A DNA stretch of 64,000 nucleotides from a virus, in IMG/VR virus record IMGVR_UViG_3300042389_001478, positions 128,498 through 192,497 of that record. One strand, written 5' to 3'. Positions 757 to 57,224 of this stretch are shown in pieces. The translations under genes and the position numbers were made by a program. The notes below the pieces were generated by a model. That model saw only the letters and a list, made by a program, of their open reading frames with translations, did not search any database and had not been told where the DNA came from. Within the stretch, counting starts at the first letter, position 1, and each line of letters begins with the position of its first letter.

Positions 757-1182
757 TTATACACCGCTTGAGCCAAATCCTCCTATTCCCCTGCTAGACT
801 GCTGTAATTCAACAGTTTCTTCAAAACTCATATTATAGTGAGCCTCTATTATCAATTGAGCTATCCTGTCGCCGCTTTTGATGTTGAGGGAGTTGGATCC
901 CGTATTCAACAATAGAACACACAACTCACCCCTGTAGGATGAATCTATAACTCCAGCCAGTACATCTATACCATTTTTAAATGCAAGGCCAGACCTAGGA
1001 GCAATTCGCCCATAATATCCTTCTGGAATTTCTATGCTTAGTCCAGTTTTAATCAGAACTCTAGACATTGGTAATAATTCAATATCCACAATAGAGAACA
1101 GGTCTGCACCAGCATCGGTAGAATTAGCCCTTAATGGCACAATGGCTTTAGGATCTAGTTTTTTATATTTGATGGTGTTCAT
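757..1182 (-). CDS. dut: dUTPase
   Basis: AGADL, RIAPRSGLA, GVIDSSYRGE, RIAQL, RGIGGFGSSG motifs. Confidence 0.97.
   Translation of the reverse strand: MNTIKYKKLDPKAIVPLRANSTDAGADLFSIVDIELLPMSRVLIKTGLSIEIPEGYYGRIAPRSGLAFKNGIDVLAGVIDSSYRGELCVLLLNTGSNSLNIKSGDRIAQLIIEAHYNMSFEETVELQQSSRGIGGFGSSGV
758..765 (-). promoter_or_regulatory. GGTGTATA motif (putative phage-sigma promoter) upstream of phoH
   Basis: Exact motif overlapping the dut stop codon. Confidence 0.6.
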
Positions 1183-3476: not shown

Positions 3477-4280
3477 TTATTGTCTTGGAACAGTGTGCGG
3501 CTGGTCTATTCGTTTGTTAAATGCTAGACTTTTCCATAGACCATCTTGATATTTATTTTCGTCACCACAATCAAAAAGAGACAAGGATTTAGAGATATCA
3601 GAAATTAATCCTGGCCACATTTCTAAACTTAATAAATGATTATGCGGCTTATGCCAATTTTCATTTTGTAAAAGATTAGCATCAAACCAAAAAAAAGTAC
3701 CAGAATAATGAAATTTGCTATTAAAATAACAGTCACGGGTGGTTCTTAAGCAGCCAACGAATTCGTATCGATTTGATTCTATTTGTGGTTTGACAAGATT
3801 ATGGAATAGGTCTATATTATATTTCCATAACGTGTTTACCCAGCAAGTCATTGCATAATTTTTTTCTGGATGACTACATCCTTTAGCATGACCAAAGAAT
3901 ACGAAATTTTTACTTTGGTCTTTTTTCAAAAGACTAGACATTAAAGGTGCTGATTTATAAAAAAAATGTTCTGATTCTTTTAGTTTATCAGAGTTTGATA
4001 CTGGTATAATATAAATATCAGAAGATTTAAAAATATCGACTACTTTTTGAAAGATGCGATTATTATGAAATTCATTATCGGGGGACGATACTGTTATGAT
4101 TTTGTATCCATTAAAAATATTTAGACTATTTTTTAGTTTTTCTATTGCATAATGTGTTTTTTCGTGATCTAAGCAATAGATATGGAATATTAGATGATAA
4201 TTTATCGCACTTTCATCTTTTTGGGATAATTCTATAAAACTGTCTTTTTGTTTTTTTTTACAAAAATATTTAAATATCAT
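3477..4280 (-). CDS. Hypothetical protein, possibly glycan-modifying
   Basis: 267-aa ORF at the end of a glycosyltransferase run; FFGHAKG and HYSGTFFWF motifs resemble phage GT-associated proteins. Confidence 0.45.
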   Translation of the reverse strand: MIFKYFCKKKQKDSFIELSQKDESAINYHLIFHIYCLDHEKTHYAIEKLKNSLNIFNGYKIITVSSPDNEFHNNRIFQKVVDIFKSSDIYIIPVSNSDKLKESEHFFYKSAPLMSSLLKKDQSKNFVFFGHAKGCSHPEKNYAMTCWVNTLWKYNIDLFHNLVKPQIESNRYEFVGCLRTTRDCYFNSKFHYSGTFFWFDANLLQNENWHKPHNHLLSLEMWPGLISDISKSLSLFDCGDENKYQDGLWKSLAFNKRIDQPHTVPRQ

Positions 4281-4282
4281 AG

Positions 4283-6082
4283 TTAATATAGTTCATAGAA
4301 TTGATCTAAAGAAATAATATTGAGTATCTCTTGTCGATTATTATCAAAATATTCCCAATTATTTACTATTTCTTCAATCTTTAAAGCATCATATGTTTTC
4401 TGTGATCCGGGACGTACTACGCCAACTCCCCAGTCGGTATCAATAACACTAACTGTTAGATCCGGTCTTGTGCATCTTAGTTTGGCTATAGATTTCCAAA
4501 CATCTCCATTCCATAGTCCTGTAACGCGAGGTATTAGCTGTAGTTCATATTCTGGTGGATTACAATCATGAACAATAATAGTTCCATTCTGATTCAAGTG
4601 CTTAATAGAGTTGATTATGTCCTTATCTACCTGTATTGAATTATGCAATCCGTCTACAAAAATAATATCATATTTCTGGTTTTCGGGTATTGATGAAAAA
4701 AATTTATCAGAAGACATGCGGTAGTTGATTTCCGGAACAAAGATTCCACCCACCTCAGACCCAGGAGATGGATCAACGCCGTCTTTGTGAGGGATTTCAA
4801 TTTGACGAATGCACAAGCCATCATTAACGCCAATTTCTAAATATCTGGTATATTGATTTTTTTTAATCAAATAGTTTATTATATCCCATCTTTGTGTGCC
4901 AACCCTATTAAGGTATTTCTCGATTGTATATTTTTTACCCACTTTTTGTTTTTCTATTGTACTCAAACTATTAATCTTAAATAATAAATTATTTATTTTA
5001 TATAATCCAATTTTATTAATTTTATGAATAATTTTTTGTATATTCTTAATGTTTTCTATATCTTCTGGATCAACTTTCTCGCAGTCTATCATCACTATGT
5101 TAGTGGTCTGATTTGATTGCAAATAATTAATATCTGTATGTAGTTTATTTTTAAGGATTATTTTTGTATTTAATTGTTCCTTGTTGATATATTCATCAAT
5201 AAGTTTTGTAGCATATGGGTCGTCTATAGAAATATTTTGTGCGAACGGCTCCAAAAATGAGATGGATTCAAGAGAGCAATTTTTAGCAACTATTGAAACG
5301 TCGTATGTGGAATCTTCTGTTATAGAGCCCCATTTTCTTATATAGTTTCTAATGCTTTGATTTTCTATTTTTTCAGTACTGTCTTTGTACTCTTCAGAAA
5401 ACCTAGAGGTTTTTGATATGAAATGATAACACAGAGAGTCCGAGCAAGTAAAGCAACTGATATTTTCCAGCATCTTTAATCTTTTAATAAGATCGTCGTC
5501 TTCTCGAAAAAACGGAGAAAAAAGATTATCAAATCCATCTATATGTAAAAACACTTTCCTGGATAAAGCCATAAAAAAGGTAATACCCGGCTCTGTTTTG
5601 TCTTTATCCTTTTCTATGGTAGATTTTGCAAACTGTTCGAATTTTGTTCTATTAAAAGTTGTTAGAGTATCTCCACAGTCGTAAATAATTTTTCCTGGTC
5701 TTGAATGATGTCCAAAAAGAGGATGCTCTATAGTAGTATATGATACAACATTGTTGGGGGTCAAATGTTTTGATAAATTTTCTAAAAAACTAGAATATAA
5801 AATAATATCATTGTGTAAAAAAACTATGTATTCTTTTGTTGCTATCTGAACAGCTTTATTATATGTGTCAGAAAAAGATTTAGACTTATCATTGGCATAG
5901 AATATTTTTACATTAAAATCCGAAAGAGAGATTTTTTCTAGCCACTCGTTAGTTCCATCTGTGGAGTCATAGCTAGCAAAACATATCTCAGTATCTGGAT
6001 AAAGATTTCTTGTTGTTGTATAGAATGACTCTGTGTATTCAAGGTTATTTTTTATAGCAACTAATAAAGAAATATTATTCAT
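4283..6082 (-). CDS. GT2 glycosyltransferase fused to a class I SAM methyltransferase (Methyltransf_24-like)
   Basis: N-terminal YDSTDGT, VFLHNDI, GFD..F...EDDDL; C-terminal YLEIGV, DIIFVDGLH, IIVHDC. Confidence 0.8.
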   Translation of the reverse strand: MNNISLLVAIKNNLEYTESFYTTTRNLYPDTEICFASYDSTDGTNEWLEKISLSDFNVKIFYANDKSKSFSDTYNKAVQIATKEYIVFLHNDIILYSSFLENLSKHLTPNNVVSYTTIEHPLFGHHSRPGKIIYDCGDTLTTFNRTKFEQFAKSTIEKDKDKTEPGITFFMALSRKVFLHIDGFDNLFSPFFREDDDLIKRLKMLENISCFTCSDSLCYHFISKTSRFSEEYKDSTEKIENQSIRNYIRKWGSITEDSTYDVSIVAKNCSLESISFLEPFAQNISIDDPYATKLIDEYINKEQLNTKIILKNKLHTDINYLQSNQTTNIVMIDCEKVDPEDIENIKNIQKIIHKINKIGLYKINNLLFKINSLSTIEKQKVGKKYTIEKYLNRVGTQRWDIINYLIKKNQYTRYLEIGVNDGLCIRQIEIPHKDGVDPSPGSEVGGIFVPEINYRMSSDKFFSSIPENQKYDIIFVDGLHNSIQVDKDIINSIKHLNQNGTIIVHDCNPPEYELQLIPRVTGLWNGDVWKSIAKLRCTRPDLTVSVIDTDWGVGVVRPGSQKTYDALKIEEIVNNWEYFDNNRQEILNIISLDQFYELY

Positions 6083-7214: not shown

Positions 7215-10200
7215 TTAATTATATGTAGGGTCTGGACATGTATTATCAGTGATTTTATCTCCAGCAATTATTCCATAATTACAAGAACCAGACATTAGTA
7301 TTGCATCAGAGTTGATATTTCCAATATTATTACTATTAACAAAAATTGTCTTCTCATTAATAGTTCCTAGTTCTTCTATCAGTAGATATGATTTACTTCG
7401 TGTGGTTTTTTCGGTAGTATTGGTATATTCATTATAGTAGTAGGCTGTAATTGATTCTGGATACAAAGGAAATGGAGGAAGATAAATTACGCGCTCGGTT
7501 CGTATAGCTTCGTATGTTTGTCCATTATAAGGATTCACTCGTTGTTCCATTGGCTTTTCATTGACAGAATCAACAAATACTGATTCTTTGTTTATGTAGT
7601 AAAAATTATTAGAGCTATAAAATAAAGCCGGGGTATTGACATTCCCTTTATTGATTGAATTATAAAAAATAGCTCCAAATGTACGAAGAGGTACAGAATC
7701 AGGAATATCTTGTTCTATAAAATAATGTTCTGTAAAATAATTACTAGATAAAGATATATTGGTATTGTTTATGCTGCCAAAATTAATAGAGTCAGAAAAA
7801 ATAGCAACATTATTAATGCTTCCATTGACGGCATTAATAGAATTATTGTGTAAGACTGCCGATCCAAAGACTGAACCAAAATTGATGCTGTTGTTGAAAT
7901 CACAATTATTTCTTATGATACCACCAAAATTATTTGAAGAATTGAAAATTCCGCTACCACTAATAGTGTCGCCAGTTCTTATATTGCCCTTGAAACCTTC
8001 CGGTTCTATATTATCGGATATCCTAAATATCCAAGGATCAAAAGAATCAGATACGGACTCAAAGTAATCAAACGGTTCTGGTGCTGTAAGATCGTGGGGG
8101 TCAACGTATGCGGGATGTTTTACAGCAGAATCAAAAAAAGCAAATGAGAAGTAGTTAGAGCTGTTAAATTCAGCATTGCCTCTAATGGAGGTTCCTATAC
8201 AAGTTCCATTATTCATAAGTAAATTGCCACCAATATCGCCAGCATTGTCTGAATTAATAAAGGTTGCATTTGAACCAATAGGACCAAAATTAATAGAACG
8301 ATTAGAAAACATACCACTATTATTAATTGTGCTATAATTAATAGAATGATTAAAAATGCTATATATATTTAATAAGCCGTTATTTTCAGAATTAATAAAA
8401 GATATTTCTGTTATACTAGGCAGGTCTACGCTTGAGCCGTTACACGCTATAGATGTGCTGGGTATTGGGCCGGAGGTTAAATTACCATAGTTGAAAGACG
8501 TATTAAAATTAGCAAAAGACATTGATCCATAATTTGTGCTCTTTGTAAAACTTGCTCCTCCTTGTATAGCGCCATAATTAACACATCCTGAGCCATCCCC
8601 AGAAGTTGCTCCGTTGAAGATGGCTGTTGTGTGTGAGTTTGGTATTGGAGGATATGTTTTTAATGACCCATAGTTCACAAAACGACCCTCAAATTCATAT
8701 CTAAAGTATCCTGCGCAATTCCCATAGTTTATGCCACTATCTTTAAAATATAGAGACGGAGGAACTGAAAAATCAAAATAGTTGTTACTATTAGTAATAC
8801 TACAATAAAACGATCCAATATAATATTGATTTAAAATTTGGTCTGAATAAAATTCTTTAGTTAAAAAATTTATTCCAGTGACAAAAATCCCACTAGAAGT
8901 AAAATTCACAGGATAATCAATAGAAAGAGATGGTCTTAGATTATACCATTGTAAATTACCTCTATTTATAGCATAGTCATTAATATATATTAAAGTATTA
9001 ATTAAATTAGCTTTATTTTCAGCATTATTATTAAGACTAATTTTTCTAATGCCAAATGTTAAATCTGGATTATTGCCTGACTTCCATGGTCTTCTCAGAG
9101 TTCCTAGATTAGTAGAGCCATTATAAAAAGATCCTGTTGTAAAAATTATTCCATTGGTTCCATTGGATGATGAATGGAAAAATACGCCGGTTTCTAAAAA
9201 TCCATTATTGTTTGAGTTATTAAGAAAACTACAGTGAATGCCGGTGGACGATATGTCATTTAATGATGAATCATAAAAATATGCTTTGCTAACATAAGCT
9301 TTATTAATTGATTGATTATAAAATTTATATTTAGCGGTATCCGATGGGGGCTGTGATAAAACCCCAAAATTGATACTATTTCCAAGGAAATTATAGTCAC
9401 AGTTTCCAGTTTCCGAAGCATAATTGATAGAATTACCAGTAAAGCTTGCTTGATAAAAAGTTAAAGAATTAATTGAATTAATAGACTTATCGTAGCATGA
9501 CAAGTAATTACATTGGCTACCAGAGTTAATGCTTGTGCCAAAAAATTGCGCAGCACCTCCTGATCCATTTATATTTTGACTTTTGTTGTCGAATCTAGCA
9601 TAGCCAAATAAACCGGTTAAATTACTAGATGTTTGATTGAAAAATAAAGCCTCTCCAGAACCTGTTGTTCGGTTGGATGATGAGTCATAAAATAGTCCGG
9701 TCTCATAAATTTTTCCAAAATTAATTGATTTGCCATAAAATTTACCAAAAGATATATTTCCGTTGTTAATACTATTATCATGTAAAATTCCGCTGTAGAT
9801 GGTGCCATTATTAATAGCTGTATTATTTAAATTTACAAGCGCAGAATTAATATAGGTTATAGAATTTTCTATATAATTAGATATATCTTTTTGGTTGATA
9901 CTGGATTGATTAAAAGATATAATTCCAGTTGATATTAGTGTCCCATTATTCTGAGAGTTGCCATTAAAATTAATAAAGGAGGATTTACATTTTCCTCCGT
10001 CTGAGTGCATAGAGTTAGAAGAAAAATTTGTTACATCAGAAAGAATAGTAAAAAAATTAATACATCCAAGACCTAGTTCGGCTAAATTTCCAGAAATATA
10101 TCCTAGGTTTATAGAATTAGATTTTAATGAACATTGTGGTCCAAATAAATACCCATTATTGATAGACCCACTAGCAAGGATAGAGACGCCAGTTACAAGC

Positions 10201-11201
10201 CCATTGTTAGTAGAACCAATAAATGTTGAATTATTAATTATGCCATTTGTATTATTAGATGAATACCAAAAACTACTATCTCCTGAAACTTGTCCCTCGT
10301 TTATTGAGCTTACAGTAAATTCAGAATTATTAAAAACTATACCGCTGTTTATGGCCCAACCAGAAAAAAGAGCATTGCCAGAGACAATCCCACAATTTAT
10401 AGCGCCATCAATAAATGAGCTATTTCCAATAATAGTTCCAGAGTTTATGCTTGACGATCCTGAAAATATTGGACTGCCATATATTTTGCCATAGTTTGTA
10501 GCATCGGTGAAAAATCCCGAATTTAAAGTAAGTGTAGCCATATTAATTGCTCCACTATCAAAAACAAAAGATCCATTGCCGGTACCATTAATTATGCCGC
10601 TGTGGACTATAAAATTCCCATTTAGTGTCGTTTGATCAGTAAGAAATTGACATGAATCTAATATGCCTGAAACAGCTTTAATAGTTGGTATATATTTATT
10701 ATCTGAAGTATCATCAAAGACTTTGATAATAGTTGTATTATTTAAATTAATAAATTGAGATTTTAAATAACAAGTATCAAAAGTAGCAAATTTACTATAT
10801 ATTCCTGTGCCCAAAAGAGAAGAAGAGGACATATCAATAAGTCTTGCTGTTGATCCACTGTTCATAGATAGTTCAGTAAAAGACCATTTGCAGGCTGTGT
10901 TATTTTCCCAATGAGAGCAAGTAATATTTTTAGCAATATTTACTTTCGAGGCCTTTAGATTTTCACAATAAAAATCCGCTCTAGTATTTGGCGCTATCTG
11001 TCCTTCATTAATAATAACATCCAGATCTTTACAGTCCATGTATGAAATTTGTCGAAAACAGCCGTTTTTAACAATATTGTATATATAATGGCTATTTAGT
11101 ATGTTAACATCTTCTGTAGCATTGATAGGCACTCTATTAGCGCGTATGCTCAGCTTTGAATCATAGTACCAAGAATTTCTATCACACCAATCATTTGTCA
11201 T
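7215..11201 (-). CDS. 1328-aa Asn/Gly/Ser-rich repeat protein, probable beta-solenoid virion or surface protein
   Basis: Many copies of FxxxSxNxG-like units with about 16-aa period (e.g. SFIDGAINCGIVSGNA / LFSGWAINSGIVFNNS / EFTVSSINEGQVSGDS). Confidence 0.6.
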   Translation of the reverse strand: MTNDWCDRNSWYYDSKLSIRANRVPINATEDVNILNSHYIYNIVKNGCFRQISYMDCKDLDVIINEGQIAPNTRADFYCENLKASKVNIAKNITCSHWENNTACKWSFTELSMNSGSTARLIDMSSSSLLGTGIYSKFATFDTCYLKSQFINLNNTTIIKVFDDTSDNKYIPTIKAVSGILDSCQFLTDQTTLNGNFIVHSGIINGTGNGSFVFDSGAINMATLTLNSGFFTDATNYGKIYGSPIFSGSSSINSGTIIGNSSFIDGAINCGIVSGNALFSGWAINSGIVFNNSEFTVSSINEGQVSGDSSFWYSSNNTNGIINNSTFIGSTNNGLVTGVSILASGSINNGYLFGPQCSLKSNSINLGYISGNLAELGLGCINFFTILSDVTNFSSNSMHSDGGKCKSSFINFNGNSQNNGTLISTGIISFNQSSINQKDISNYIENSITYINSALVNLNNTAINNGTIYSGILHDNSINNGNISFGKFYGKSINFGKIYETGLFYDSSSNRTTGSGEALFFNQTSSNLTGLFGYARFDNKSQNINGSGGAAQFFGTSINSGSQCNYLSCYDKSINSINSLTFYQASFTGNSINYASETGNCDYNFLGNSINFGVLSQPPSDTAKYKFYNQSINKAYVSKAYFYDSSLNDISSTGIHCSFLNNSNNNGFLETGVFFHSSSNGTNGIIFTTGSFYNGSTNLGTLRRPWKSGNNPDLTFGIRKISLNNNAENKANLINTLIYINDYAINRGNLQWYNLRPSLSIDYPVNFTSSGIFVTGINFLTKEFYSDQILNQYYIGSFYCSITNSNNYFDFSVPPSLYFKDSGINYGNCAGYFRYEFEGRFVNYGSLKTYPPIPNSHTTAIFNGATSGDGSGCVNYGAIQGGASFTKSTNYGSMSFANFNTSFNYGNLTSGPIPSTSIACNGSSVDLPSITEISFINSENNGLLNIYSIFNHSINYSTINNSGMFSNRSINFGPIGSNATFINSDNAGDIGGNLLMNNGTCIGTSIRGNAEFNSSNYFSFAFFDSAVKHPAYVDPHDLTAPEPFDYFESVSDSFDPWIFRISDNIEPEGFKGNIRTGDTISGSGIFNSSNNFGGIIRNNCDFNNSINFGSVFGSAVLHNNSINAVNGSINNVAIFSDSINFGSINNTNISLSSNYFTEHYFIEQDIPDSVPLRTFGAIFYNSINKGNVNTPALFYSSNNFYYINKESVFVDSVNEKPMEQRVNPYNGQTYEAIRTERVIYLPPFPLYPESITAYYYNEYTNTTEKTTRSKSYLLIEELGTINEKTIFVNSNNIGNINSDAILMSGSCNYGIIAGDKITDNTCPDPTYN

Positions 11202-11204
11202 ATT

Positions 11205-12761
11205 TTACTCTCTAAAATATAGTTCAGAGGTTTTATCTAATGATTTCTTATTATTTATTGGCAAAAACTGCTTATAGTTCAATGTTCTTTTTGGAAAACC
11301 TTCTTGAGTTGATATGGCAAAAACCATTCCAAAAGCCCGTTGTCTTTCTGTACACTCAAACGGAGTGCAGCTGGTGTCGTCTCCATCTGGTACACAGCTT
11401 TTATAAATATCGGGAAAGTAGCATGGTGGAGGACAGAATCTTTCTCTACACCCCTTAAAGCTTGGAGTTTGATTAAAAGTTATCATTGATCGTAAATGGC
11501 TTTCGGTTACTAAAAAACTTCCTTTTGGTATTGGTCCCCAAAATGGGTCGCCGCCGCTGTTCCATTCTCCCCAGCTATTTGCTAGTAAATAAACACATTC
11601 TGGATATTGTATTTTAGTATCATCATAACCTATTATAGAATAGGAATGATACCAAATTCTATCAGGATAACTTAGCCCAGTAGAATCACGATAGTCCGGA
11701 AAGCCTACATTTGTCATTAATACTATCCCATATCCATTATAGATCAAGTCTTTAATAATAGCAATATTTTTATTCATAATGTCGTAGTTGATCATCGAAA
11801 TAGTACGACAGCGTTCTATTTTTGCGATTGGATTTGATTGTGGTAAAATAGTGTCGTTTGTATAGTCATATCCATTAATACTTTGAAAATATTGTAAGAA
11901 TAGATCATCTCTACATCCATAAAAATTAGGACCACTATTATCTATAAAGTTACCATACCCACCATAGCTTTTTCTCTTTAAGATTCCTATATGCTTAAGT
12001 TTTTTACCCACAAATCCGCTTGATTGATTGCCGCTAAAATAGTTATCATCCGATGGTATCCAAAATGAAAACTCGTCTCTGTTTGTGATTATCCCCCCGC
12101 AACATTCATTGATGCGTTTTTCACAACTTCCACCGTCGTTACAACATGGATCGTTTTGATCTGGCGGGTCAGAAGTACACTCTCCGCAACTTCTGCATTT
12201 TGGACGCTCTTCACCCGGTAATTTGACGCATCCGTGAGCTGTTCCAGCAGCACCAAAAGGTGGATTAGGTAAGCATGATTTCATGATGCCGCAGCCGGTA
12301 GCTCTAGATTTGGCGGTGGTTTCTGGCACCAAGTCCGGACCCAGAACCATTAAACAATCTACCAATGAGTTTCCTCCGAAATGTTCTAGGGGCTCTGGTG
12401 CTGTTCTGCTTTCCCAAGCCAAATAGTTTTTAGTTATTTCAATATCACAAGCTCTTGTAATATCAACAGCATTTCTAGTGGCGTGAGAAGATCCACTACT
12501 AGTTGCTGGCTGAATTTCCCTAAAAGCCTCAGCGTCTATTCTGCATAAAAATTTATATGGTATCCCAATACGCTGGCTTCCAGTTCCTTTGATAGTAGAA
12601 ATATGAGGAGCAGAGTCAATACAAGGATACTTAAGATGCTCTAGAAACTTAATGAGCCTTGGGAGATTATAGGGAGTTCCAAATCCAATTTCTCCATACT
12701 CGAAATCACTAGTGCATGGTCCTAGCGTATAGGATAGATAAAGTTCTCTGGGAGTAAGCAT
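11205..12761 (-). CDS. Papain-like (C1) pseudo-peptidase with Cys-rich insertions
   Basis: Paralog of 16176..17099; WYHSY and LANSWG retained, but DCVSHG aligns with SGSSHA (catalytic Cys replaced by Gly). Confidence 0.7.
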   Translation of the reverse strand: MLTPRELYLSYTLGPCTSDFEYGEIGFGTPYNLPRLIKFLEHLKYPCIDSAPHISTIKGTGSQRIGIPYKFLCRIDAEAFREIQPATSSGSSHATRNAVDITRACDIEITKNYLAWESRTAPEPLEHFGGNSLVDCLMVLGPDLVPETTAKSRATGCGIMKSCLPNPPFGAAGTAHGCVKLPGEERPKCRSCGECTSDPPDQNDPCCNDGGSCEKRINECCGGIITNRDEFSFWIPSDDNYFSGNQSSGFVGKKLKHIGILKRKSYGGYGNFIDNSGPNFYGCRDDLFLQYFQSINGYDYTNDTILPQSNPIAKIERCRTISMINYDIMNKNIAIIKDLIYNGYGIVLMTNVGFPDYRDSTGLSYPDRIWYHSYSIIGYDDTKIQYPECVYLLANSWGEWNSGGDPFWGPIPKGSFLVTESHLRSMITFNQTPSFKGCRERFCPPPCYFPDIYKSCVPDGDDTSCTPFECTERQRAFGMVFAISTQEGFPKRTLNYKQFLPINNKKSLDKTSELYFRE

Positions 12762-12762
12762 A

Positions 12763-13014
12763 TCATTTTGATGTTACTAATTTATTGTATAACACCAAAG
12801 ATATGACTGCCCCAATCACACCAGCGAATATACCGGCTGGACTTACTGTGCTATATTCACCGATCATATAAAGTAATGCTCCTCCCATATAAGAGCCTGC
12901 TACTCCTAATGCTACGGTTTTGATAAATCCAAAGTTTTCTTCTCCAGGAACTAAGCTTTTGGCGATACTTCCCACAAATAAACCATAAACACCCCACACT
13001 AAAATATTAAACAT
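12763..13014 (-). CDS. GlsB/YeaQ/YmgE-like (transglycosylase-associated) membrane protein
   Basis: Three Gly-rich hydrophobic helices; G.IAK.L.PG, LGVAGSY.GG, GVIGAV pattern. Confidence 0.8.
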   Translation of the reverse strand: MFNILVWGVYGLFVGSIAKSLVPGEENFGFIKTVALGVAGSYMGGALLYMIGEYSTVSPAGIFAGVIGAVISLVLYNKLVTSK

Positions 13015-13402
13015 TGGCTGCCTCCACTAAGGTAATAACTTCATCCTCCGTGAGAATTTCTCCTGTATCTAACAGAGCAGATAGAATTGCAAAAGAATAC
13101 TTATTATAGTCTTCTCTGCTCATCTCTTTTCTTAGAATTTTCTTAATTCTCATTTTTGTAAACCATCCACGTTTTTGGCTAAATGTTTTAACTTGTTCTC
13201 CATATAGATTATACTTATCGGCTTGTGTTGAGGAAGCTGATAATTTATTCTTATTACATTCTTGTAATATTCTTATACAAGTTAGTATTATACTAATAAT
13301 CATCAGAATAGTTACTATTGCAAAGCCGTAATTATCTTCTTTGGGTACGCTGGATTTTTCTAAAACTTTTATTGCTATAGATTTAAGTTTTTCGTTATTC
13401 AT
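13007..13402 (-). CDS. Hypothetical membrane protein
   Basis: One hydrophobic segment; overlaps the neighbouring gene. Confidence 0.6.
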   Translation of the reverse strand: MNNEKLKSIAIKVLEKSSVPKEDNYGFAIVTILMIISIILTCIRILQECNKNKLSASSTQADKYNLYGEQVKTFSQKRGWFTKMRIKKILRKEMSREDYNKYSFAILSALLDTGEILTEDEVITLVEAANV

Positions 13403-13437
13403 GTAGCACCTTTTAAATAGTTAATTTTTAAAAAAGT

Positions 13438-15510
13438 TTAATAGGATAAAATTCTGTTTTCTCTTGTTGCATAGTTTAGTTTCATGTATCTATTTTTGAT
13501 ACTTAGCGTCATATTAGAGGTATATGTAGGTGAATTCCATACTGTATTCCCTAAGGCATATGATCCTCCTATCATATAGGTATATGTTCCATTACAGGTC
13601 CATCTGTATGTAGATCTAACAAAACTGTATGCAGGTTGTAGACTTAAGGACAGTCCGGGCCAAATATCATAATATGAATCAGGCCATGGATCAATATCTT
13701 TCCATAATTTTAAATTAATATTATGCAAACTATTGGGGGGATAAGAATAATAAGATAATCCTTGTGTAGGTAGATCGAATGCGAATTCTGCTTCTACGGC
13801 TTTTTCTGTTTGATCCGGTATGGATATTGGCCAAAATCCAAATGGATTCTCGTCGTAGTAGACCTGCAAATTAAGAGTAGCCGGTGAAAGATGAGTAACA
13901 TAGCAAGAATTCCAGGTGATAGTATTTCCATTAATTTCTGTTGGCCTGCCTGATGTATTAACAGTAGATGGGGTGGTATTAATAATATCTATAGAAAGTA
14001 TACAATATTCTATTAAAAATCCTCTTTTTAAATAATTAGGCACAGATGGGTATTTACTAGACTTAGTAGGGATATTTGGATTTATATAAGGATCAAAATA
14101 AGTTTTTGTATCGTCTATTGTCATATTTGCATCTGCATATATAGAACGATCTAAAGTTGATATAGTATAAGCATATGGCCAATTAGGAGATATATCAACT
14201 GTTATTCCTGTGCCTGGGATCATATTTAGTCCAGTCGTAGAAATAATACCACTTATATATTTACCTCCAGTACCACCATATGTATTAGAAGCTGGTGTGC
14301 CTGTGGCGAATTGAATTTCCATATTATTGCCAACAATAGCATTTAATCCAGTATTATATATAATACCACTACTAGGCCACGAATTATCAAAATTTAATAC
14401 AATATTATTTTCTGTTCTAGAATTCAACCCTGTGGTAGAAATAATGCCGCTCAGATATTTACCTCCAACGCCACGGAATTTATTCGCTGCCGGAGTACCC
14501 GTAGCAAACTGAATTTCCATGTTGTTGCCTATAATTGCATTTAGTCCAGTATTATAAATAATACCGCTATTGGGCCAACTGCTTTCAAAATCTCGCACAA
14601 TTAAGTTTTCGGATCGTGCATTTAGGCCGGTTGTAGAAATAATACCACTTTGATATTTACCTGCTGTGCCGCCATAAAGATTGGAGGCAGGAGTACCTGA
14701 AGTAAATTGTATCTCAATGTTATTGCCAATTATGGCATTTAATCCAGTATTATAGACTACACCACTATATGGCCATGAATTTTCAAAGTCACGAACTATT
14801 AGATTTTCAGTACGAGTATTTAGGCCAGTTGTAGAAATAATTCCACTCTTATATTTGCCTGCAGTTCCTCCATAAAGGTTAGAAGCTGGAGTTCCTGTGG
14901 CAAACTGAATTTCCATGTTGTTTCCGATAATGGCATTTAGCCCAGTGTTGTAAATCACCCCACTATTAGGCCAGCTACTTTCAAAATCTCGTACGATTAA
15001 ATTTTCTGTTCTAGCGTTAAGTCCAGTTGTAGAGATAATTCCACTATAGTATTTATATCCAACTCCTCCAAACTTATTCGCCGCTGGAGTTCCAGCAGAA
15101 AATTGAATTTCCATATTGTTGCCGATAACGGCGTTTAGCCCAGTAGTATAAATAACTCCACTATATGGCCATTGAGCTTGATAATCAATAGCTATAAGAT
15201 TTGCTGTTTGACTATTTAGTCCTGTAGTAGATATGGTCTCATCATACGGATAAATTGTGCCATAAGTAAGATCTATTAAATTTCCTTCTTTGCTGCTTGA
15301 ATATAGAGTAATTCCATTTCTAGTTCCGCTCGATACTCCAATTCCAGATACTCCTTCTATTTTCACTAAATATTTGCGTAAACTTTGTATAGATGTTTCT
15401 TTTGAAACTAATATCGATCCATCTTTATTGTATCCGGTTACTACATATATTAAATCATCGTCTAATATAGCAAACTCAGGAGGAAGAGATAGGGGGATAT
15501 CGGATGGCAT
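13438..15510 (-). CDS. Tandem-repeat protein, probable virion fibre or appendage
   Basis: Five 66-aa tandem repeats followed by a non-repetitive C-terminal domain. Confidence 0.65.
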   Translation of the reverse strand: MPSDIPLSLPPEFAILDDDLIYVVTGYNKDGSILVSKETSIQSLRKYLVKIEGVSGIGVSSGTRNGITLYSSSKEGNLIDLTYGTIYPYDETISTTGLNSQTANLIAIDYQAQWPYSGVIYTTGLNAVIGNNMEIQFSAGTPAANKFGGVGYKYYSGIISTTGLNARTENLIVRDFESSWPNSGVIYNTGLNAIIGNNMEIQFATGTPASNLYGGTAGKYKSGIISTTGLNTRTENLIVRDFENSWPYSGVVYNTGLNAIIGNNIEIQFTSGTPASNLYGGTAGKYQSGIISTTGLNARSENLIVRDFESSWPNSGIIYNTGLNAIIGNNMEIQFATGTPAANKFRGVGGKYLSGIISTTGLNSRTENNIVLNFDNSWPSSGIIYNTGLNAIVGNNMEIQFATGTPASNTYGGTGGKYISGIISTTGLNMIPGTGITVDISPNWPYAYTISTLDRSIYADANMTIDDTKTYFDPYINPNIPTKSSKYPSVPNYLKRGFLIEYCILSIDIINTTPSTVNTSGRPTEINGNTITWNSCYVTHLSPATLNLQVYYDENPFGFWPISIPDQTEKAVEAEFAFDLPTQGLSYYSYPPNSLHNINLKLWKDIDPWPDSYYDIWPGLSLSLQPAYSFVRSTYRWTCNGTYTYMIGGSYALGNTVWNSPTYTSNMTLSIKNRYMKLNYATRENRILSY
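14224..15243 (-). repeat. Five full plus one partial 198-nt (66-aa) coding tandem repeats
   Basis: Unit SGIISTTGLNARTENLIVRDFESSWPNSGVIYNTGLNAIIGNNMEIQFATGTPASNLYGGTAGKYK, counted from residue 90 to 429. Confidence 0.95.
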
Positions 15511-15524
15511 ATCGATTATTCCCT

Positions 15525-15872
15525 CTAATTAGGTCGGCATTTGCCGTTTTGACAACGAGGGACAGTAATAGTTTTTTGTGCTTCGGCTGGTAACTTGGGA
15601 CTAATAGAGGTTATTGGTCCAATAGAGACTAAACCCTTATCTGGTTCACAATATGTGCACTCTATTTTTAGAATACCGTCCCCACTCATATACCATCCTT
15701 TCCCCTTACAGACTGGACAGTCTTTTCTTTTATGTTTTTGTGATACTTCCTGTACATGCTTGGCTTTAATAATGCCGCCAACAAGAGTTACTGGAGCCGT
15801 TGTTGAGCCATAGTAATTAGATTGAGAAAATAATAAACCCACACAAAATAAACTGATAAATAGTTTATTCAT
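15525..15872 (-). CDS. Secreted Cys-motif protein
   Basis: Signal-peptide-like N-terminus; CPVCKGKG...CTYC and terminal CQNGKC. Confidence 0.6.
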   Translation of the reverse strand: MNKLFISLFCVGLLFSQSNYYGSTTAPVTLVGGIIKAKHVQEVSQKHKRKDCPVCKGKGWYMSGDGILKIECTYCEPDKGLVSIGPITSISPKLPAEAQKTITVPRCQNGKCRPN

Positions 15873-16093
15873 TTTTTATCTCTCCATGGAAGAGGTATAA
15901 TATTGTCGATAGTATCCACTACTCTTTTAAGAGGTCTTGGTTTATTGGGCTTTACTGGAGAGTCTGGATTGTCAACTTTGGGTTTGGGTCCAAACTTTTC
16001 TTGAGCCTTTATGAAAAGCAGGGAAATTGTTTCAATAAGACCAATGATCATATTGATAACAGCTCTTAACTCTAATCTTTCTCTTAAATTCAT
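15869..16093 (-). CDS. Hypothetical protein
   Basis: Hydrophobic N-terminus, Pro-rich tail; overlaps the next gene. Confidence 0.55.
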   Translation of the reverse strand: MNLRERLELRAVINMIIGLIETISLLFIKAQEKFGPKPKVDNPDSPVKPNKPRPLKRVVDTIDNIIPLPWRDKK

Positions 16094-16129
16094 AAAATTA
16101 TTCCTGGTAGGAATTTAGGGATATAAATA

Positions 16130-16137
16130 TATACACC
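16130..16137 (-). promoter_or_regulatory. GGTGTATA motif
   Basis: Exact intergenic copy. Confidence 0.62.
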
Positions 16138-16175
16138 TAATAGAGATGATCAGTTAAAATAGCTAATCGGTAATT

Positions 16176-17099
16176 TTAGAGATAGTCTTCAAAGCCATAA
16201 CTTGGTAGTTTTTGAAGGGGGAATCCATCAAAACCACTAAAGGCATATGATCCATTTTGACTCAACATGCCCTGAGCAATATCGGCATTTATCAAGAAAG
16301 ATCCATCTGGAATTGGGCCCCATTCTGGATGACCTCCATCGTTCCATTTGCCCCAACTATTTTGAACTAGAAATGCTGGTTCGCCATTAGTATCATCACA
16401 AGCTATCCAAGCCATGCAATGACCCCAAGATCCTGACTGTTTAGCAAATCCTTTTTTGTCTCTGGTATTGCTAAAGCCATAATTAGAACAGACTGCTAAA
16501 CCATATCCATTACCTAGAGCGTCTCTAGCTTCTTCTACTGTTCTAATCAATGAAGCAGTCCTAATTTGGTGGTCGTTGGCAAGGTCTAATACTTTATCGG
16601 GGAGTCCTCTGCCGCCCCAGCCTGCTCCTAAATTGCCATTGTATTTACTAAAGTCTACAAAACCATAATTTTTTCTTACCACAAGACCGCCAACCTTGCT
16701 TACAAATTCAGCCGCTCTTGCACAACTCATACCTTGTCCGCTGAATCCTCTGTATCCATAAATAGCCTCTGTTGCGCCCTTTGCTATCCAATCCTCTCTC
16801 TCATTTCCTATATCTATTTCTACCGCTCGTGAAACATCGCAAGCATTTCGTGTTCCATGGCTCACACAATCCCCGGTGGTTTGTCTTTCATTATAAGGAT
16901 TTTTATCAAATTTTAACACACTTTTATATGGTGTTGATAGTTTACCCTTACCACTGCCACTAATTTTTTTACTAGCATCACCAAACAATGGATACTTGGA
17001 GGTTTCCATTAAATTATCGTAAACATGCTGTTCCCACAAGCATCCACTAAATCCCTTGCGATAATTATCATATAGTTCTTTAGGAGAGAGTCTTGGCAT
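16176..17099 (-). CDS. Papain-like (C1) cysteine peptidase, intact catalytic residues
   Basis: Q..GDCVSHG, WGHCM, VQNSWG. Confidence 0.85.
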   Translation of the reverse strand: MPRLSPKELYDNYRKGFSGCLWEQHVYDNLMETSKYPLFGDASKKISGSGKGKLSTPYKSVLKFDKNPYNERQTTGDCVSHGTRNACDVSRAVEIDIGNEREDWIAKGATEAIYGYRGFSGQGMSCARAAEFVSKVGGLVVRKNYGFVDFSKYNGNLGAGWGGRGLPDKVLDLANDHQIRTASLIRTVEEARDALGNGYGLAVCSNYGFSNTRDKKGFAKQSGSWGHCMAWIACDDTNGEPAFLVQNSWGKWNDGGHPEWGPIPDGSFLINADIAQGMLSQNGSYAFSGFDGFPLQKLPSYGFEDYL

Positions 17100-28311: not shown

Positions 28312-29448
28312 TTATACTCCGAATATCGGGTTCTTATTTGAATGTATTTGGTTTGTTTTGCAGAACTGGCTGCACTTAGACATATTTTTGATTGAATTAG
28401 ATCCAACATAACAACAGCAAGACCGTATGCCTCCGAGTAGCTCTTGAATTATATCTTTAGTCAACCCTTTATATTTAACTGTAATTTTTGTTCCTTCAGA
28501 TGCTCTGTAATCTTTTTTGCCGTCTTCATATTGGTCTTGGGCGTGATGAGAACTCATTCCATAATATGTAAAATTAACTTTTCTAGTCTCGGTTTCATAT
28601 CCTGGGTTAAATGGTTGCCAAAATTCAGCTGCTATGCCAGCCTTTGCGCATTTATACTCTACTGTCCATTCTCCTTCACAAGAATCGGTCCCGGCAAAAA
28701 ATCCTCCCAGCATAATAAAGTCTGCTCCAGCACACATCGCCTTACATACGTCTCCACTATGCTTGTGTCCTCCGTCTGAGCAAATTAATCCTAATTTCTT
28801 ATCTCCATTTTGCAACCCGTGCGCTACATAAGAATTGTCTAAACAACAAGATAACTGGGGATATCCGCATCCAGTAATAAATCTTGTCATGCAAGCACTG
28901 CCTCCTCCAACTCCACACTTCACAATATCTACTCCTCCATATATAAGGAGTTCTTGGGTGGACGATGGATTCGTAACATTTCCTGCAATGATAATAGATT
29001 CTGGGAAATGATCCCTAATTTTTTTACAGTATCTAACAAACACATCCATGTGACCATTAGGAACATCAATACAAATGTTGGGTTGTATGCCAGTTTTTTG
29101 ATAAAATTCTAATAAGTGATTTATATCAGATTTTTTATATCCAATAGAAATCCAAACATAGTTTACAACGTTTGGGTTGGCTAGAAAATATGAAGATAAT
29201 TGCTCCACTGTGTGGTATTTATGGAGACATGTTATCATCTTATATTGACTCAAAGTAGTTGCCATATCAAATGAAGCGAAGCTCATATTTGCACAGATTA
29301 TAGGGATGCCAGACCAAATCCTTGGGCTGTGATAAAAGCTAAATGATCTTTCTAGATTTATCTCTGATCTGCTTGTTAGTGTGGATCTTTGGGGAACTAT
29401 TAAAACATCATCAAAATCTAGTTTGATATCATCAATTATTTTGTTCAT
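28312..29448 (-). CDS. guaC: GMP reductase
   Basis: LDFDDVLI, IDVPNGH, KCGVGGGSACMTR (catalytic Cys), SDGG, YYGMSS, ASEG. Confidence 0.92.
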   Translation of the reverse strand: MNKIIDDIKLDFDDVLIVPQRSTLTSRSEINLERSFSFYHSPRIWSGIPIICANMSFASFDMATTLSQYKMITCLHKYHTVEQLSSYFLANPNVVNYVWISIGYKKSDINHLLEFYQKTGIQPNICIDVPNGHMDVFVRYCKKIRDHFPESIIIAGNVTNPSSTQELLIYGGVDIVKCGVGGGSACMTRFITGCGYPQLSCCLDNSYVAHGLQNGDKKLGLICSDGGHKHSGDVCKAMCAGADFIMLGGFFAGTDSCEGEWTVEYKCAKAGIAAEFWQPFNPGYETETRKVNFTYYGMSSHHAQDQYEDGKKDYRASEGTKITVKYKGLTKDIIQELLGGIRSCCCYVGSNSIKNMSKCSQFCKTNQIHSNKNPIFGV

Positions 29449-29884
29449 TATTATCTATTTCTATTTTTTTCCTATCGTGAAAATAGTTTTTTCCATAGTC
29501 AACAAAGATTTCGCTTCCAGCTTTTATATCTCTATTAGCAATTACATCTGCAATTAAATTAGTAAAATCAAATTTCCAGGTAGTATTTGCGTCATCTTGA
29601 TGGTTATAAATCATACCATATCCAAGAACCATATGGAAAATAAATCCATGTGTTTTACATTCATTACAAGGACACATAGGCTGGCTATATAAAAACCGGT
29701 AAATCTGAGGATCGCTATGATATCTAGACCTAAAAGCTAGAGGCACCATTGGGCATCTCTCTACGATATCGCCTTCTTTGATATCTTGAACAGCAAAGAC
29801 TCCTCTTCCATGAATATCAGATTGTCCTAATTTAATTTTAGAATTTACTAAAAAATCTATATCTATTTGATTGTCGGTATCCAT
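29432..29884 (-). CDS. SET-domain lysine methyltransferase 1
   Basis: S.IHGRGVFA, GYGMIYNH, EIFVDYG; internal CPCNEC..H. Confidence 0.88.
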   Translation of the reverse strand: MDTDNQIDIDFLVNSKIKLGQSDIHGRGVFAVQDIKEGDIVERCPMVPLAFRSRYHSDPQIYRFLYSQPMCPCNECKTHGFIFHMVLGYGMIYNHQDDANTTWKFDFTNLIADVIANRDIKAGSEIFVDYGKNYFHDRKKIEIDNNEQNN

Positions 29885-29885
29885 A

Positions 29886-30359
29886 TTATTTTTCTAATTT
29901 AACTTGAGTTTGACCCGTTTCAACTTTGTCGTTGTTGAAGTAACAGTTTCCATAGCTTACAAAAATTTCTTGTCCAACCTGTATATCTTTAATAGCAATT
30001 ACATCACCAAGTAATTGAGTATAATTAAACTTCCACAATGCATTGGGATCATCCTGATGATTATACATCATACCATATCCTAGCGCCATATGAAATACGA
30101 ACCCATGCCTTTCGCACTCATCACACGGACACAGGGGTTGAGCATACATATAAGCATAAACCTGAGAATCTATTTGATATTTAGATCTATTAGCCATTTC
30201 AATCAAAGGACATCTCTCTATAATATCTCCTTTTTTAAAAGGCTTAAGAGCAAATACTCCTCTACCTTGTATGTCTGAATCTCCTAAAATGATATTACCA
30301 GCTGGTAAATAATCTAATTTCTTTGGGTCGTCTGGTCTAACGTAATGTTTTAAGCTCAT
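29886..30359 (-). CDS. SET-domain lysine methyltransferase 2
   Basis: S.IQGRGVFA, GYGMMYNH..PN, EIFVSYG; internal CPCDEC..H. Confidence 0.88.
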   Translation of the reverse strand: MSLKHYVRPDDPKKLDYLPAGNIILGDSDIQGRGVFALKPFKKGDIIERCPLIEMANRSKYQIDSQVYAYMYAQPLCPCDECERHGFVFHMALGYGMMYNHQDDPNALWKFNYTQLLGDVIAIKDIQVGQEIFVSYGNCYFNNDKVETGQTQVKLEK

Positions 30360-30556
30360 AGAGTATCTTTCAGGAATTCGTCTGTATCATAACAAGTTAA
30401 TTTTTTCTTCCAGCCAAGTTCACTTATGCATATTTTCAGACTAGTCACTAAGCCTCTTCCTTTATAGTGTTTTAATGTATCAATAATAGCAGTATGATGA
30501 TCTTTTCTATCTATAATATATTTAATTTGTCCTGATTGGACATAATATTTTGACAT
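30356..30556 (-). CDS. Hypothetical protein
   Basis: Small ORF overlapping the SET2 start. Confidence 0.55.
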   Translation of the reverse strand: MSKYYVQSGQIKYIIDRKDHHTAIIDTLKHYKGRGLVTSLKICISELGWKKKLTCYDTDEFLKDTL

Positions 30557-30560
30557 TATA

Positions 30561-31094
30561 TTATTCTATATTAAAAAAATACCATCTTTTGTGAGTATCT
30601 ATATTCTCTGAGGTGTCGATATGCAAAAGATAAGATTTAATTTCATCCCATGTAGAAAAAATCATTTGATGAGGAATAGTACCGAACAGCCAGTCCGGGG
30701 TTTGCTTTTTTCCTTGCACCATATGAACTAAAATAGGCTTCTTTTGTCTATTTGCCCAAAATATTTCTTCTAAAGTGCCGCACGGATGTACGGTAAGATC
30801 AAGATTTACAATAATAAAATCGCTTATATCTACTAATCTTAAGTCAACAGATCGTATTGACTTCATCATAGAAGATAACTCATCATAGTTTTCTTTTTCT
30901 TTAAGCTTTGATTTTATCTTATGGGAATCTTGATCCTCAAGTCCTATATTTGATGGTTTGCTGCTTGGATTGAATACTTCAACCCCTAGAGCATTCAAAA
31001 ATGGAGTGATACTATCTCTCCATGTACAACCTCTATCTGGAACTCTATCCATTGCTCCAGCAAGATAAACTCTTTGATTATGTAGTCTGTTCAT
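30561..31094 (-). CDS. Nucleoside 2-deoxyribosyltransferase-like N-glycosidase
   Basis: VYLAG, WR, D...VD.SD, GTLEE, KKPI motifs. Confidence 0.8.
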   Translation of the reverse strand: MNRLHNQRVYLAGAMDRVPDRGCTWRDSITPFLNALGVEVFNPSSKPSNIGLEDQDSHKIKSKLKEKENYDELSSMMKSIRSVDLRLVDISDFIIVNLDLTVHPCGTLEEIFWANRQKKPILVHMVQGKKQTPDWLFGTIPHQMIFSTWDEIKSYLLHIDTSENIDTHKRWYFFNIE

Positions 31095-31280
31095 TTAAAT
31101 CCCAGGAAACAAAAAATCTAAAAGGTTCTTGGACGATTTTACTGGATATGACGGAGCATATAACTCATTCAGGCCCCGTAAAACACCAAGGATTAAACAA
31201 ATCAAAAAAGCAAAGTAATACATATTATCTCCAAATTTATTGAAAGTATACAAACACATGAGAATCATACCAAATATCAT
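31095..31280 (-). CDS. Small membrane protein
   Basis: Hydrophobic segment; true start probably internal (MYYFAF). Confidence 0.45.
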   Translation of the reverse strand: MIFGMILMCLYTFNKFGDNMYYFAFLICLILGVLRGLNELYAPSYPVKSSKNLLDFLFPGI

Positions 31281-31806
31281 TTATTAAATCCGAAATGAAA
31301 TTCCAATTACCCCCAGCCAGTCCACTCCCGAATTTTGGGGCATGTATTTCTATTTTAGAATCATTTTGTACTTGGAACTCTTTAGCAAAAGTTCTCACTT
31401 GATTCATGCAATAGACTAATGCGGCATAATTTAGAGGTCTTTTGTTTTTTGAATTGAGTAGTTTATTTTGTGCGATCATGTTTGCAAATATGATGCTATG
31501 GCCATATTTTTTATCTGATCTGACTGTGATAAATTGAGTATGTCCAAGTTTCGCCTTTTGGCCCAGCAAGTGAAAATTGGCCTTAACCTCTGGATAAAAT
31601 TCAGCAACTTGTCCAGCGAATCCGGCGCCGAAGGCATTTATGTTGTTGCATACATGGGGAACGATGACCGTAGCTCCATTTTGTTCTGAGCGTATTCTAT
31701 GCACAATGTCTTCAAAAATATTCCTATTTTTCACTAGGGAGTATGCGTTTTCATTTTGGTGGACTGCTTTGGGTGTCATTTTAAATTCCTGTCTATTTTT
31801 TGCCAT
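31237..31806 (-). CDS. Macrodomain (ADP-ribose-processing) protein
   Basis: IVPHVCN...FGAGFA, NMIAQ, APKFGSGLAGGNW. Confidence 0.85.
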   Translation of the reverse strand: MAKNRQEFKMTPKAVHQNENAYSLVKNRNIFEDIVHRIRSEQNGATVIVPHVCNNINAFGAGFAGQVAEFYPEVKANFHLLGQKAKLGHTQFITVRSDKKYGHSIIFANMIAQNKLLNSKNKRPLNYAALVYCMNQVRTFAKEFQVQNDSKIEIHAPKFGSGLAGGNWNFISDLINDIWYDSHVFVYFQ

Positions 31807-57144: not shown

Positions 57145-57224
57145 TACTCCTGCTTGGAATCGAACCAAGTCCCCTTTCGGATTACCTTATAAGAGTAACT
57201 GCCGGGAACCACCGGCACAGGAGC
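57145..57224 (-). tRNA. trnI: Atypical tRNA-Ile(UAU)
   Basis: GCTCCTG/CAGGAGT-A acceptor; TGCCGG/CCGGCA D arm; TTACT-CTTATAA-GGTAA anticodon arm; CCGAAAGG variable hairpin; CTTGG-TTCGATT-CCAAG T arm; consensus promoter 9 nt upstream. Confidence 0.85.

Follow-up and report, generated by a model that had tools for sequence, protein, structure and literature searches.

A tandem pair of minimal SET-domain methyltransferase genes with a probable zinc-binding insert in a large uncultured tailed phage

The DNA analysed here is a window of 64,000 nucleotides, the final 64 kb of the 192,497-bp virus record IMGVR_UViG_3300042389_001478, which is rated 100% complete. It carries two adjacent genes for small SET-domain proteins, designated SETup and SETdn for the upstream and the downstream paralog. 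The explanation that best accounts for the findings overall, and that we consider rather probable, is that these genes encode two self-sufficient methyltransferases resembling vSET of a chlorella virus, each with a zinc knuckle in the SET-I segment, and that they arose from an old duplication and have diverged in their targets. The novelty lies in a SET-I Cys3His knuckle that is absent from solved structures, in the phage setting, and in an old duplication of which one copy is exchangeable.

Results

Two minimal SET-domain genes in tandem

The genes and the codons of their principal motifs are positioned in the window as follows.

29886..30359 (including stop), minus strand: SETup, a 157-aa minimal SET-domain protein, upstream paralog
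29432..29884 (including stop), minus strand: SETdn, a 150-aa minimal SET-domain protein, downstream paralog
30057..30062, minus strand: SETup N100-H101, NH motif of the S-adenosylmethionine (SAM)/lysine pocket
29600-29605, minus strand: SETdn N94-H95, NH motif
29952..29954, minus strand: SETup Y136, catalytic Tyr of EIFVSYG, aligned with the tyrosine of ISYG in vSET
29495-29497, minus strand: SETdn Y130, catalytic Tyr of EIFVDYG
30105..30131, minus strand: SETup C77-P-C79-D-E-C82-E-R-H85, proposed Cys3His metal knuckle
29648..29674, minus strand: SETdn C71-P-C73-N-E-C76-K-T-H79, in the same alignment columns as the SETup knuckle
29882..29888, minus strand: SETup-SETdn junction TAA-T-ATG, tightly packed, with no fused frame

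Both proteins match the Pfam SET family PF00856 far above its cut-off of 22.4 bits, SETup with 50.2 bits (E 3.8e-13) and SETdn with 48.0 bits (E 1.9e-12), each covering model positions 1-105 of 105; the matches were reproduced on the full genome record. The paralogs share 57% identity across 136 residues (E 2e-64). A first-pass annotation of the window had proposed two adjacent SET paralogs with the GxG-VFA, NH and ExxxxYG motifs, and the open reading frames (ORFs), family matches and motifs all bear this out. The first motif reads G32-R-G34-VFA in SETup and G26-R-G28-VFA in SETdn, the NH motif stands within YNHQDDPN and YNHQDDAN in the two paralogs, and the last comprises E131..Y136-G and E125..Y130-G, respectively. 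Residues G34, N100, H101, E131 and Y136 (SETup numbering) are invariant in the alignment designated A1, and the G-G-N-H-E-Y pattern is retained in 189 of the 252 relatives considered below. With all catalytic residues kept, neither paralog looks like a pseudoenzyme, and the motifs indicate that both are SET methyltransferase genes whose products are very probably active; they would be SAM-dependent protein (lysine) methyltransferases of the minimal, vSET-like class.

Both are stand-alone SET proteins of fewer than about 170 residues, lacking pre-SET and post-SET regions and any further Pfam domain. SETup has one Cys beyond the catalytic Tyr and SETdn has none, so there is no post-SET cluster; the canonical arrangement (CxCx4C together with the Cys of NHSC) is absent, the NH motif here being NHQ. 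That both copies carry CPC(N/D)ECxxHG within the SET-I (i-SET) segment while lacking the post-SET Cys cluster, as had also been noted at first, can be read directly from the translations. SETup is extended by RPDDPxKL at its N-terminus and carries a TGxxQVK tail at its C-terminus, as is typical of its clade, and the last 17 bases of SETdn, at its 3' end, overlap a GMP-reductase-like gene. PHROGs holds no family matching either protein, and NCBIfam yielded nothing for them except a sub-threshold, weak and partial match to a LegAS4 fragment.

The fold is that of the SET enzymes. In a sequence search of the PDB the top match is vSET (E 1e-12 for the single-protein query, 5e-22 for the family profile), followed by Plasmodium PFL0690c and Schizosaccharomyces pombe Set7. 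An AlphaFold2 model was made of SETup only, as a single chain (pLDDT 77.5, pTM 0.70); Foldseek placed it closest to vSET (3kma, E 1.5e-10, TMt 0.84), the best matches being vSET, PFL0690c, Set7 and SETD8, with MLL also found. There were 407 PDB matches at E<=0.001, and every one among the matches listed is a SET-domain enzyme. The best structural matches in BFVD are UniProt entries without any study.

Duplication history and purifying selection

Relatives of the two genes, here called up-type and dn-type, were compared at 38 related IMG/VR loci, which have at least 24% identity to SETup or the Cys/His insert. The same tandem, up-type first, occurs at 10 of the 38; at four the up-type stands alone, at L042 the gene is broken, and the remainder have the dn-type only. 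The check for tandem conservation was thus positive, the order of the two types being kept in these 10 further viral contigs within a conserved gene block. In L042 the sole SET gene is split at 4022-4407 into two overlapping frames, either a frameshifted pseudogene or a sequencing error.

In a maximum-likelihood tree all up-type genes form one clade (support 98/91) nested among the dn-type sequences. This nesting argues that the dn-type is the older and that the up-type came from it by duplication. SETdn itself groups with the dn-type grade, the same type that is the sole copy in many related phages. The duplication therefore appears to be old, with the dn-type as ancestral single-copy form and the up-type as a derived clade, and it would have taken place in a lineage of tailed freshwater phages that are large and uncultured. 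The types are also told apart by sequence marks: the RPDDPxKL stretch is specific to the up-type, the TGxxQVK tail is found in up-types of tandem genomes, and most dn-type proteins, not including the window copy, end in AKNN. Both types are under purifying selection, the median pairwise ratio of nonsynonymous to synonymous divergence (dN/dS) being 0.18 for the up-type and 0.21 for the dn-type, with values of 0.06-0.12 in close pairs. Most likely the two paralogs diverged in substrate or in the site modified, acting on host or phage proteins during infection.

Replacement of the upstream copy among close relatives

The two copies differ sharply in how they vary between near-identical phages. 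Between loci L007 and L016 the flanking DNA is 93-99% identical and SETdn 93-95%, whereas SETup is only 63-80% identical, one of the two SETup alleles having the Cys triad and the other lacking it. Synonymous divergence (dS) in this pair is 1.11 for SETup against 0.26 for SETdn. The difference points to replacement of SETup by an older allele through recombination, not to fast point evolution. A similar gradient separates the window from its nearest relative, L017, in which amino acid identity is 98% for the nucleoside 2-deoxyribosyltransferase (NDT)-like protein, 95% for GuaC, 77% for SETdn and 57% for SETup. A small gene at the same junction, p66, is present in the window and absent from L017.

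Exchange of one gene between near-identical phages while its neighbours stay is typical of host-interaction functions, and it offers a lead: recombination of the up-type among close phages suggests that its target may vary between hosts. Taken further, one copy, most likely the fast-changing up-type, would be a counter-defence or host-takeover factor with a target that depends on the host strain, lysine methylation serving to mask or inactivate a host protein or to shield phage lysines from host modification. We regard this as unlikely, if worth keeping in view. Speaking for it are the allele replacement at a divergence hot spot, with a dS four times that of the adjacent SETdn, the presence or absence of p66 at the same junction, the position of the locus beside a macrodomain-like gene (phrog_335) and other accessory genes, and the near absence from cultured phages of these proteins, which match no PHROG family and only 2 of 50,697 GenBank phage records. 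Against it, dN/dS is low (0.1-0.2) and the pairwise estimates give no sign of positive selection on the SET genes; matches to defence or anti-defence families were absent; and neutral mosaicism might account for the hot spot.

A more elaborate version joins both copies, and we consider it improbable. A dn-type enzyme with a constant target would be accompanied by a swappable, host-specific up-type cassette, with the knuckle as specificity element, and that cassette would mask phage lysines against a lysine-directed host defence (ubiquitin-like conjugation, acylation or ADP-ribosylation) or inactivate that defence. If true, this would be a phage lysine-methylation system with no precedent in phage biology.

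Two enzymes or one heterodimer

It had been suggested at first that the two products might form a heterodimer. As a requirement this is not supported, because there are complete genomes with one type and no copy of the other: the dn-type stands alone in the complete record G404 (149.5 kb) and in G405 (98% complete), and the complete record G402 has an up-type gene with no dn-type, its second SET gene being of an unrelated canonical type beside thyX. That gene (locus L195, G402:C1:52300-54700, 978-1361, minus strand) encodes a third kind of small SET protein, of 127 aa, in a 186-kb phage; it lies far from the syntenic locus, directly upstream of the thyX-like gene, and has the motifs RFVNHSNNPN and ELTIDY with no Cys insert.

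The strongest form of the idea, an obligate heterodimer that would resemble the vSET homodimer in a pseudo-symmetric way and work as a single enzyme with a single substrate, has several points in its favour. Homodimers are formed by vSET and S. pombe Set7, the closest relatives of known structure; the two genes are adjacent and tightly packed; their order is kept in 10 other contigs; and natural SET-SET fusions occur in bacteria (P0086 of GCA_042683085.1, P0102, P0109, P0125 and others), P0086 having a one-sided CxCxxC that parallels those phage pairs in which the triad is gone from the up copy but still present in the dn copy. Yet the up copy has been swapped independently of its partner between near-identical phages, an exchange that would put a co-adapted interface under strain, the search among close relatives in the phage clade found no fused form, and the catalytic residues are all kept in both copies. 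With the dn-only and up-only genomes added, we judge an obligate heterodimer to be distinctly unlikely, facultative pairing being possible. Under the explanation preferred here, of two self-sufficient enzymes, each paralog would probably be a homodimer, as are vSET and Set7.

Two related possibilities were discarded. The junction TAA-T-ATG would permit a +1 fusion by programmed frameshift or read-through, but spacing and frame vary among the relatives, from a 14-nt overlap to a 3-nt gap. The search for fused SET-SET or SET-plus-domain forms in the phage clade gave only a distant peptidase M14-SET protein with 32% identity.

A Cys/His insert in the SET-I segment

The sequence C-P-C-(D/N)-E-C-x-x-H-G spans residues 77-86 of SETup and 71-80 of SETdn. 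It aligns to an 11-residue gap in vSET that follows the SET-N strands and precedes the GxG..NH segment, a location corresponding to SET-I, and alignments from the sequence and profile searches of the PDB show no such insert in solved SET structures. In the SETup model C77 and C79 lie in the loop after strand 71-74, and C82 and H85 on helix 80-85; this loop-then-helix arrangement is the usual shape of a zinc knuckle and would be compatible with a metal site. C-x-C-x2-C followed three residues on by a His on a helix is typical of a compact Cys3His zinc knuckle.

The behaviour of these residues was followed in 252 non-identical relatives, drawn from a word-index search, an exhaustive profile search and the viral loci, and aligned to the family hidden Markov model. 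Three Cys are present in 149 of them, none in 100, and one or two in 3, so that the triad is all or none in 249 of the 252. The His accompanies the triad in 136 of the 149, and the four putative ligands are thus largely conserved together. By comparison C50 of the ERC motif, a Cys also in vSET, is conserved and varies independently of the triad. The all-or-none pattern fits a cooperative metal site that has been lost several times. The Cys/His stretch behaves like a metal-binding unit and is probably a zinc-binding insert. SET-I forms one wall of the substrate groove, and a Cys3-His knuckle there would most likely bind one structural zinc. The initial proposal of a zinc knuckle in the substrate-specificity region therefore holds as to its place in SET-I and its metal-unit-like conservation; the knuckle is dispensable all the same, having been lost several times.

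Several observations weigh against the explanation preferred here. The fourth-ligand His is replaced by Y, A, F, D, E, R, K or N in 13 of the 149 triad-bearing relatives, which makes the identity of a fourth metal ligand uncertain. The triad has been lost at least four times in intact genes, once within the up-type clade, where the partner dn copy keeps it, and three times in single-copy genes; the function of the knuckle is therefore non-essential. Within SET-I the SETup model has only moderate confidence, with block means of 65-78, and its C-terminus is poorly predicted. The bacterial SET-SET fusions leave room for facultative pairing, and the identity of the phage rIIA protein to its nearest cultured counterparts is at most 37%.

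Some of these points would also suit a Cys/His stretch that served as a redox disulfide switch, as a set of iron-sulfur (Fe-S) ligands or as a docking element, with no structural zinc site: the fourth ligand varies, and the site can be lost. We hold this to be a slim prospect. The all-or-none C-x-C-x2-C with a helical His is typical of a Cys3His zinc knuckle, three Cys within six residues lie too close for a cubane cluster, and two Cys would suffice for a disulfide switch.

Distribution of the insert

A profile search of 1.84 billion cluster representatives returned 5,292 SET relatives at E<=0.001, and C-x-C-x2-C-x2-H is present in 49 of the best 150 of these representatives, which were clustered at 50% identity. 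The insert thus marks a large subfamily, found mostly in metagenomes and viral contigs, rather than this phage alone; the contigs of the distant motif-bearing representatives are too short to be classified by context. It could have been a common feature of ordinary bacterial SET proteins, which would have spoken against its being distinctive, and this is not so. Among 80 bacterial species loci that share the GYGMxYNH core (in SAR116, Solirubrobacter, Myxococcus and others; scan made with alignment A1, identity at most 39%) not one has the insert. In a sample of 401 genomes from one bacterial phylum, 123 have a SET match, and the triad occurs in 2 of the best 30 loci. The insert is likewise missing from the viral SET genes that are more distantly related (L044-L076). 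Among the 50,697 GenBank phage records, translated search with SETup matched two, which are two copies of one 735-kb metagenomic megaphage with 27% identity. The first-pass annotation described phage SET enzymes as poorly characterised; in keeping with this, no paper describing a bacteriophage SET-domain enzyme was found in full-text literature.

Neighbouring genes, p66 and lasso-peptide clusters

The SET genes lie within a conserved block. One flank comprises a macrodomain-like gene, an NDT-like gene, a pair of small genes and, in some loci, p66 adjoining the SET gene or genes; the other has the GMP-reductase-like gene and GT1, and further off a ferritin-like gene and PAP2. The relevant features of the window, and the two bacterial loci discussed with them, are listed below.

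30356..30556, minus strand: p66, conserved and 66 aa long, its stop codon overlapping the start of SETup (ATGA)
28312-29448, minus strand: GMP-reductase-like gene (match to NF003470 at E 2.5e-106, short of the curated cut-off)
30561-31094, minus strand: 177-aa NDT-like protein, with matches near thresholds only (30.1 bits against 30; 23.6 against 28.8)
31237-31806, minus strand: 189-aa protein matching phrog_335 ("phosphatase", E 9e-21), which fits a macrodomain-like reading
L194 (G176:C1:1379000-1397000), 8526-16559: lasso-peptide cluster
L077, 1-7945: lasso-peptide cluster

The NDT-like and macrodomain-like genes are conserved beside the SET genes throughout the lineage. The GMP-reductase-like gene falls into two classes of amino acid identity among syntenic relatives, about 41-47% and about 69-95%, a split not seen in its neighbours and suggestive of allele replacement at a second site in the block.

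Of the 24 related loci listed, 15 have the p66 gene directly upstream of the SET gene or genes; several genomes retaining both SET genes lack p66, the nearest relative among them. Its product is Lys-rich, has 23 invariant positions (C43 and C55 among them) and is translationally coupled to SETup. The model predicts a small alpha/beta protein of order beta-beta-alpha-beta-beta-alpha (pLDDT 84). No match to p66 was found in Pfam, PHROGs or NCBIfam; Foldseek gave nothing at E<=0.001, and the best VIA match, at Z 5.1, lies in the noise range. As an identifiable partner p66 was therefore dropped.

Two triad-bearing bacterial relatives could be placed, and both lie inside lasso-peptide clusters (genomes G176 and G001). 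One is a 192-aa SET protein with CKCEECSTHG; P0086, the SET-SET fusion, is the second. Within these clusters lie an Asn-synthase-like cyclase, PqqD, Transglut_core3, an HPr-kinase-like gene, NTP_transf_5, an ABC exporter and a PhyH dioxygenase, along with precursor-like ORFs of 40-49 aa that share a common leader-like start. By analogy with this context a peptide-tailoring role is conceivable for the lasso-cluster branch of SET proteins; we know of no SET enzyme that tailors lasso peptides, and such a role would be new. For the phage enzymes themselves we find it very improbable that they act in tailoring, with a small peptide or protein as their substrate and the 66-aa product as one candidate: the placement of the only two such bacterial relatives and the Lys-rich, conserved and coupled p66 would favour it, but the phage block has no lasso-maturation genes, the two precursor-like ORFs of G001 contain no Lys beyond the leader-like stretch that is common to them and the G176 ORF, p66 is missing from the nearest relative and several others with both SET genes, and two bacterial loci are a thin basis.

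The source phage

That the record derives from a large tailed phage, sampled by metagenomics, is indicated by the rIIA, ATP-dependent DNA ligase and ribonucleotide reductase genes in the window and by a weak Terminase_6N match in the 192-kb record; the window also has an HNH endonuclease gene, and nearly all of its ORFs are on one strand. A single tRNA-Ile (anticodon TAT) is present at 57145-57224 on the minus strand. Pfam gave no match anywhere in the record to the Gp23 capsid (PF07068) or the sheath (PF04984), and with rIIA/rIIB-like genes present and these matches lacking, the phage is not a classical T4-like phage. The T4 late-promoter motif TATAAATA has 17 matches against 12.5 expected, which is no enrichment, and a generic promoter and terminator scan gave nothing usable near the SET pair. 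Megablast with a 6-kb block found no match among cultured relatives; the related contigs are metagenomic, mostly IMG/VR viral contigs of 100-240 kb.

Discussion

SET-enzyme lysine methylation is central to eukaryotic chromatin biology, and to our knowledge it is almost unexplored in bacteria and, judging from the literature searched, unstudied in bacteriophages. The present findings define a large SET subfamily with a probable zinc knuckle at a position unseen in solved SET structures, and they make available small, soluble-looking proteins with which lysine methylation during phage infection might be studied. If the exchanged copy is host-specific, it would be a new kind of enzyme in the arms race between phage and host. 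The bacterial relatives in lasso-peptide clusters may in turn point to a new peptide-tailoring activity.

Comparison with known SET enzymes

The closest known system is vSET (A612L of Paramecium bursaria chlorella virus 1; PDB 1n3j / 3kma), likewise a minimal viral SET protein with neither pre-SET nor post-SET. It shares the motifs GxGVFA, NH..PN and E-I-x-(I/V)-SYG with the phage proteins, and differs in its length of 119 aa, its identity of about 30%, and its 11-residue gap where the phage proteins have CxCxxCxxH. The virus that encodes vSET infects a eukaryote, and the enzyme methylates histone H3K27. The host of this phage has no such histone, and the 192-kb record has no match to HU (PF00216) or to histone-fold proteins (PF00808). 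A phage-encoded chromatin substrate was rejected on these Pfam searches, and H3K27 seems an unlikely substrate given the context of a tailed phage with no histone-fold or HU gene. S. pombe Set7 (PDB 5h6z) and P. falciparum PFL0690c (PDB 4rz0), the other leading matches, which rank second or third, are also small stand-alone SET domains; unlike the phage proteins, both come from eukaryotes and their SET-I is without a Cys/His knuckle, a longer, unrelated insert taking its place in PFL0690c.

Outside eukaryotes, SET enzymes are exemplified by Methanosarcina mazei Go1-SET, Chlamydia NUE/cpnSET and Legionella RomA/LegAS4. Some prokaryotic SET enzymes methylate chromatin proteins, such as MC1-alpha or Hc1. 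We know of no SET-I knuckle in any of these three. The bacterial SET-SET fusions resemble the phage pairs in joining two minimal SET domains, and P0086 resembles some of them further in that its N-terminal half has CxCxxC and its C-terminal half has lost it; they differ in being single polypeptides of bacterial chromosomes, P0086 within a lasso-peptide cluster.

The SUV39, SET1/MLL, SET2 and EZH2-type enzymes have the catalytic core in common with the phage proteins. In canonical SET enzymes a small post-SET Cys cluster with zinc shapes the substrate and cofactor site. That cluster is C-terminal (CxCx4C with the Cys of NHSC), whereas the phage cysteines are in SET-I and the NH is followed by Q. 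By stiffening SET-I, the proposed knuckle would play the part of the post-SET zinc cluster from a different place in the fold.

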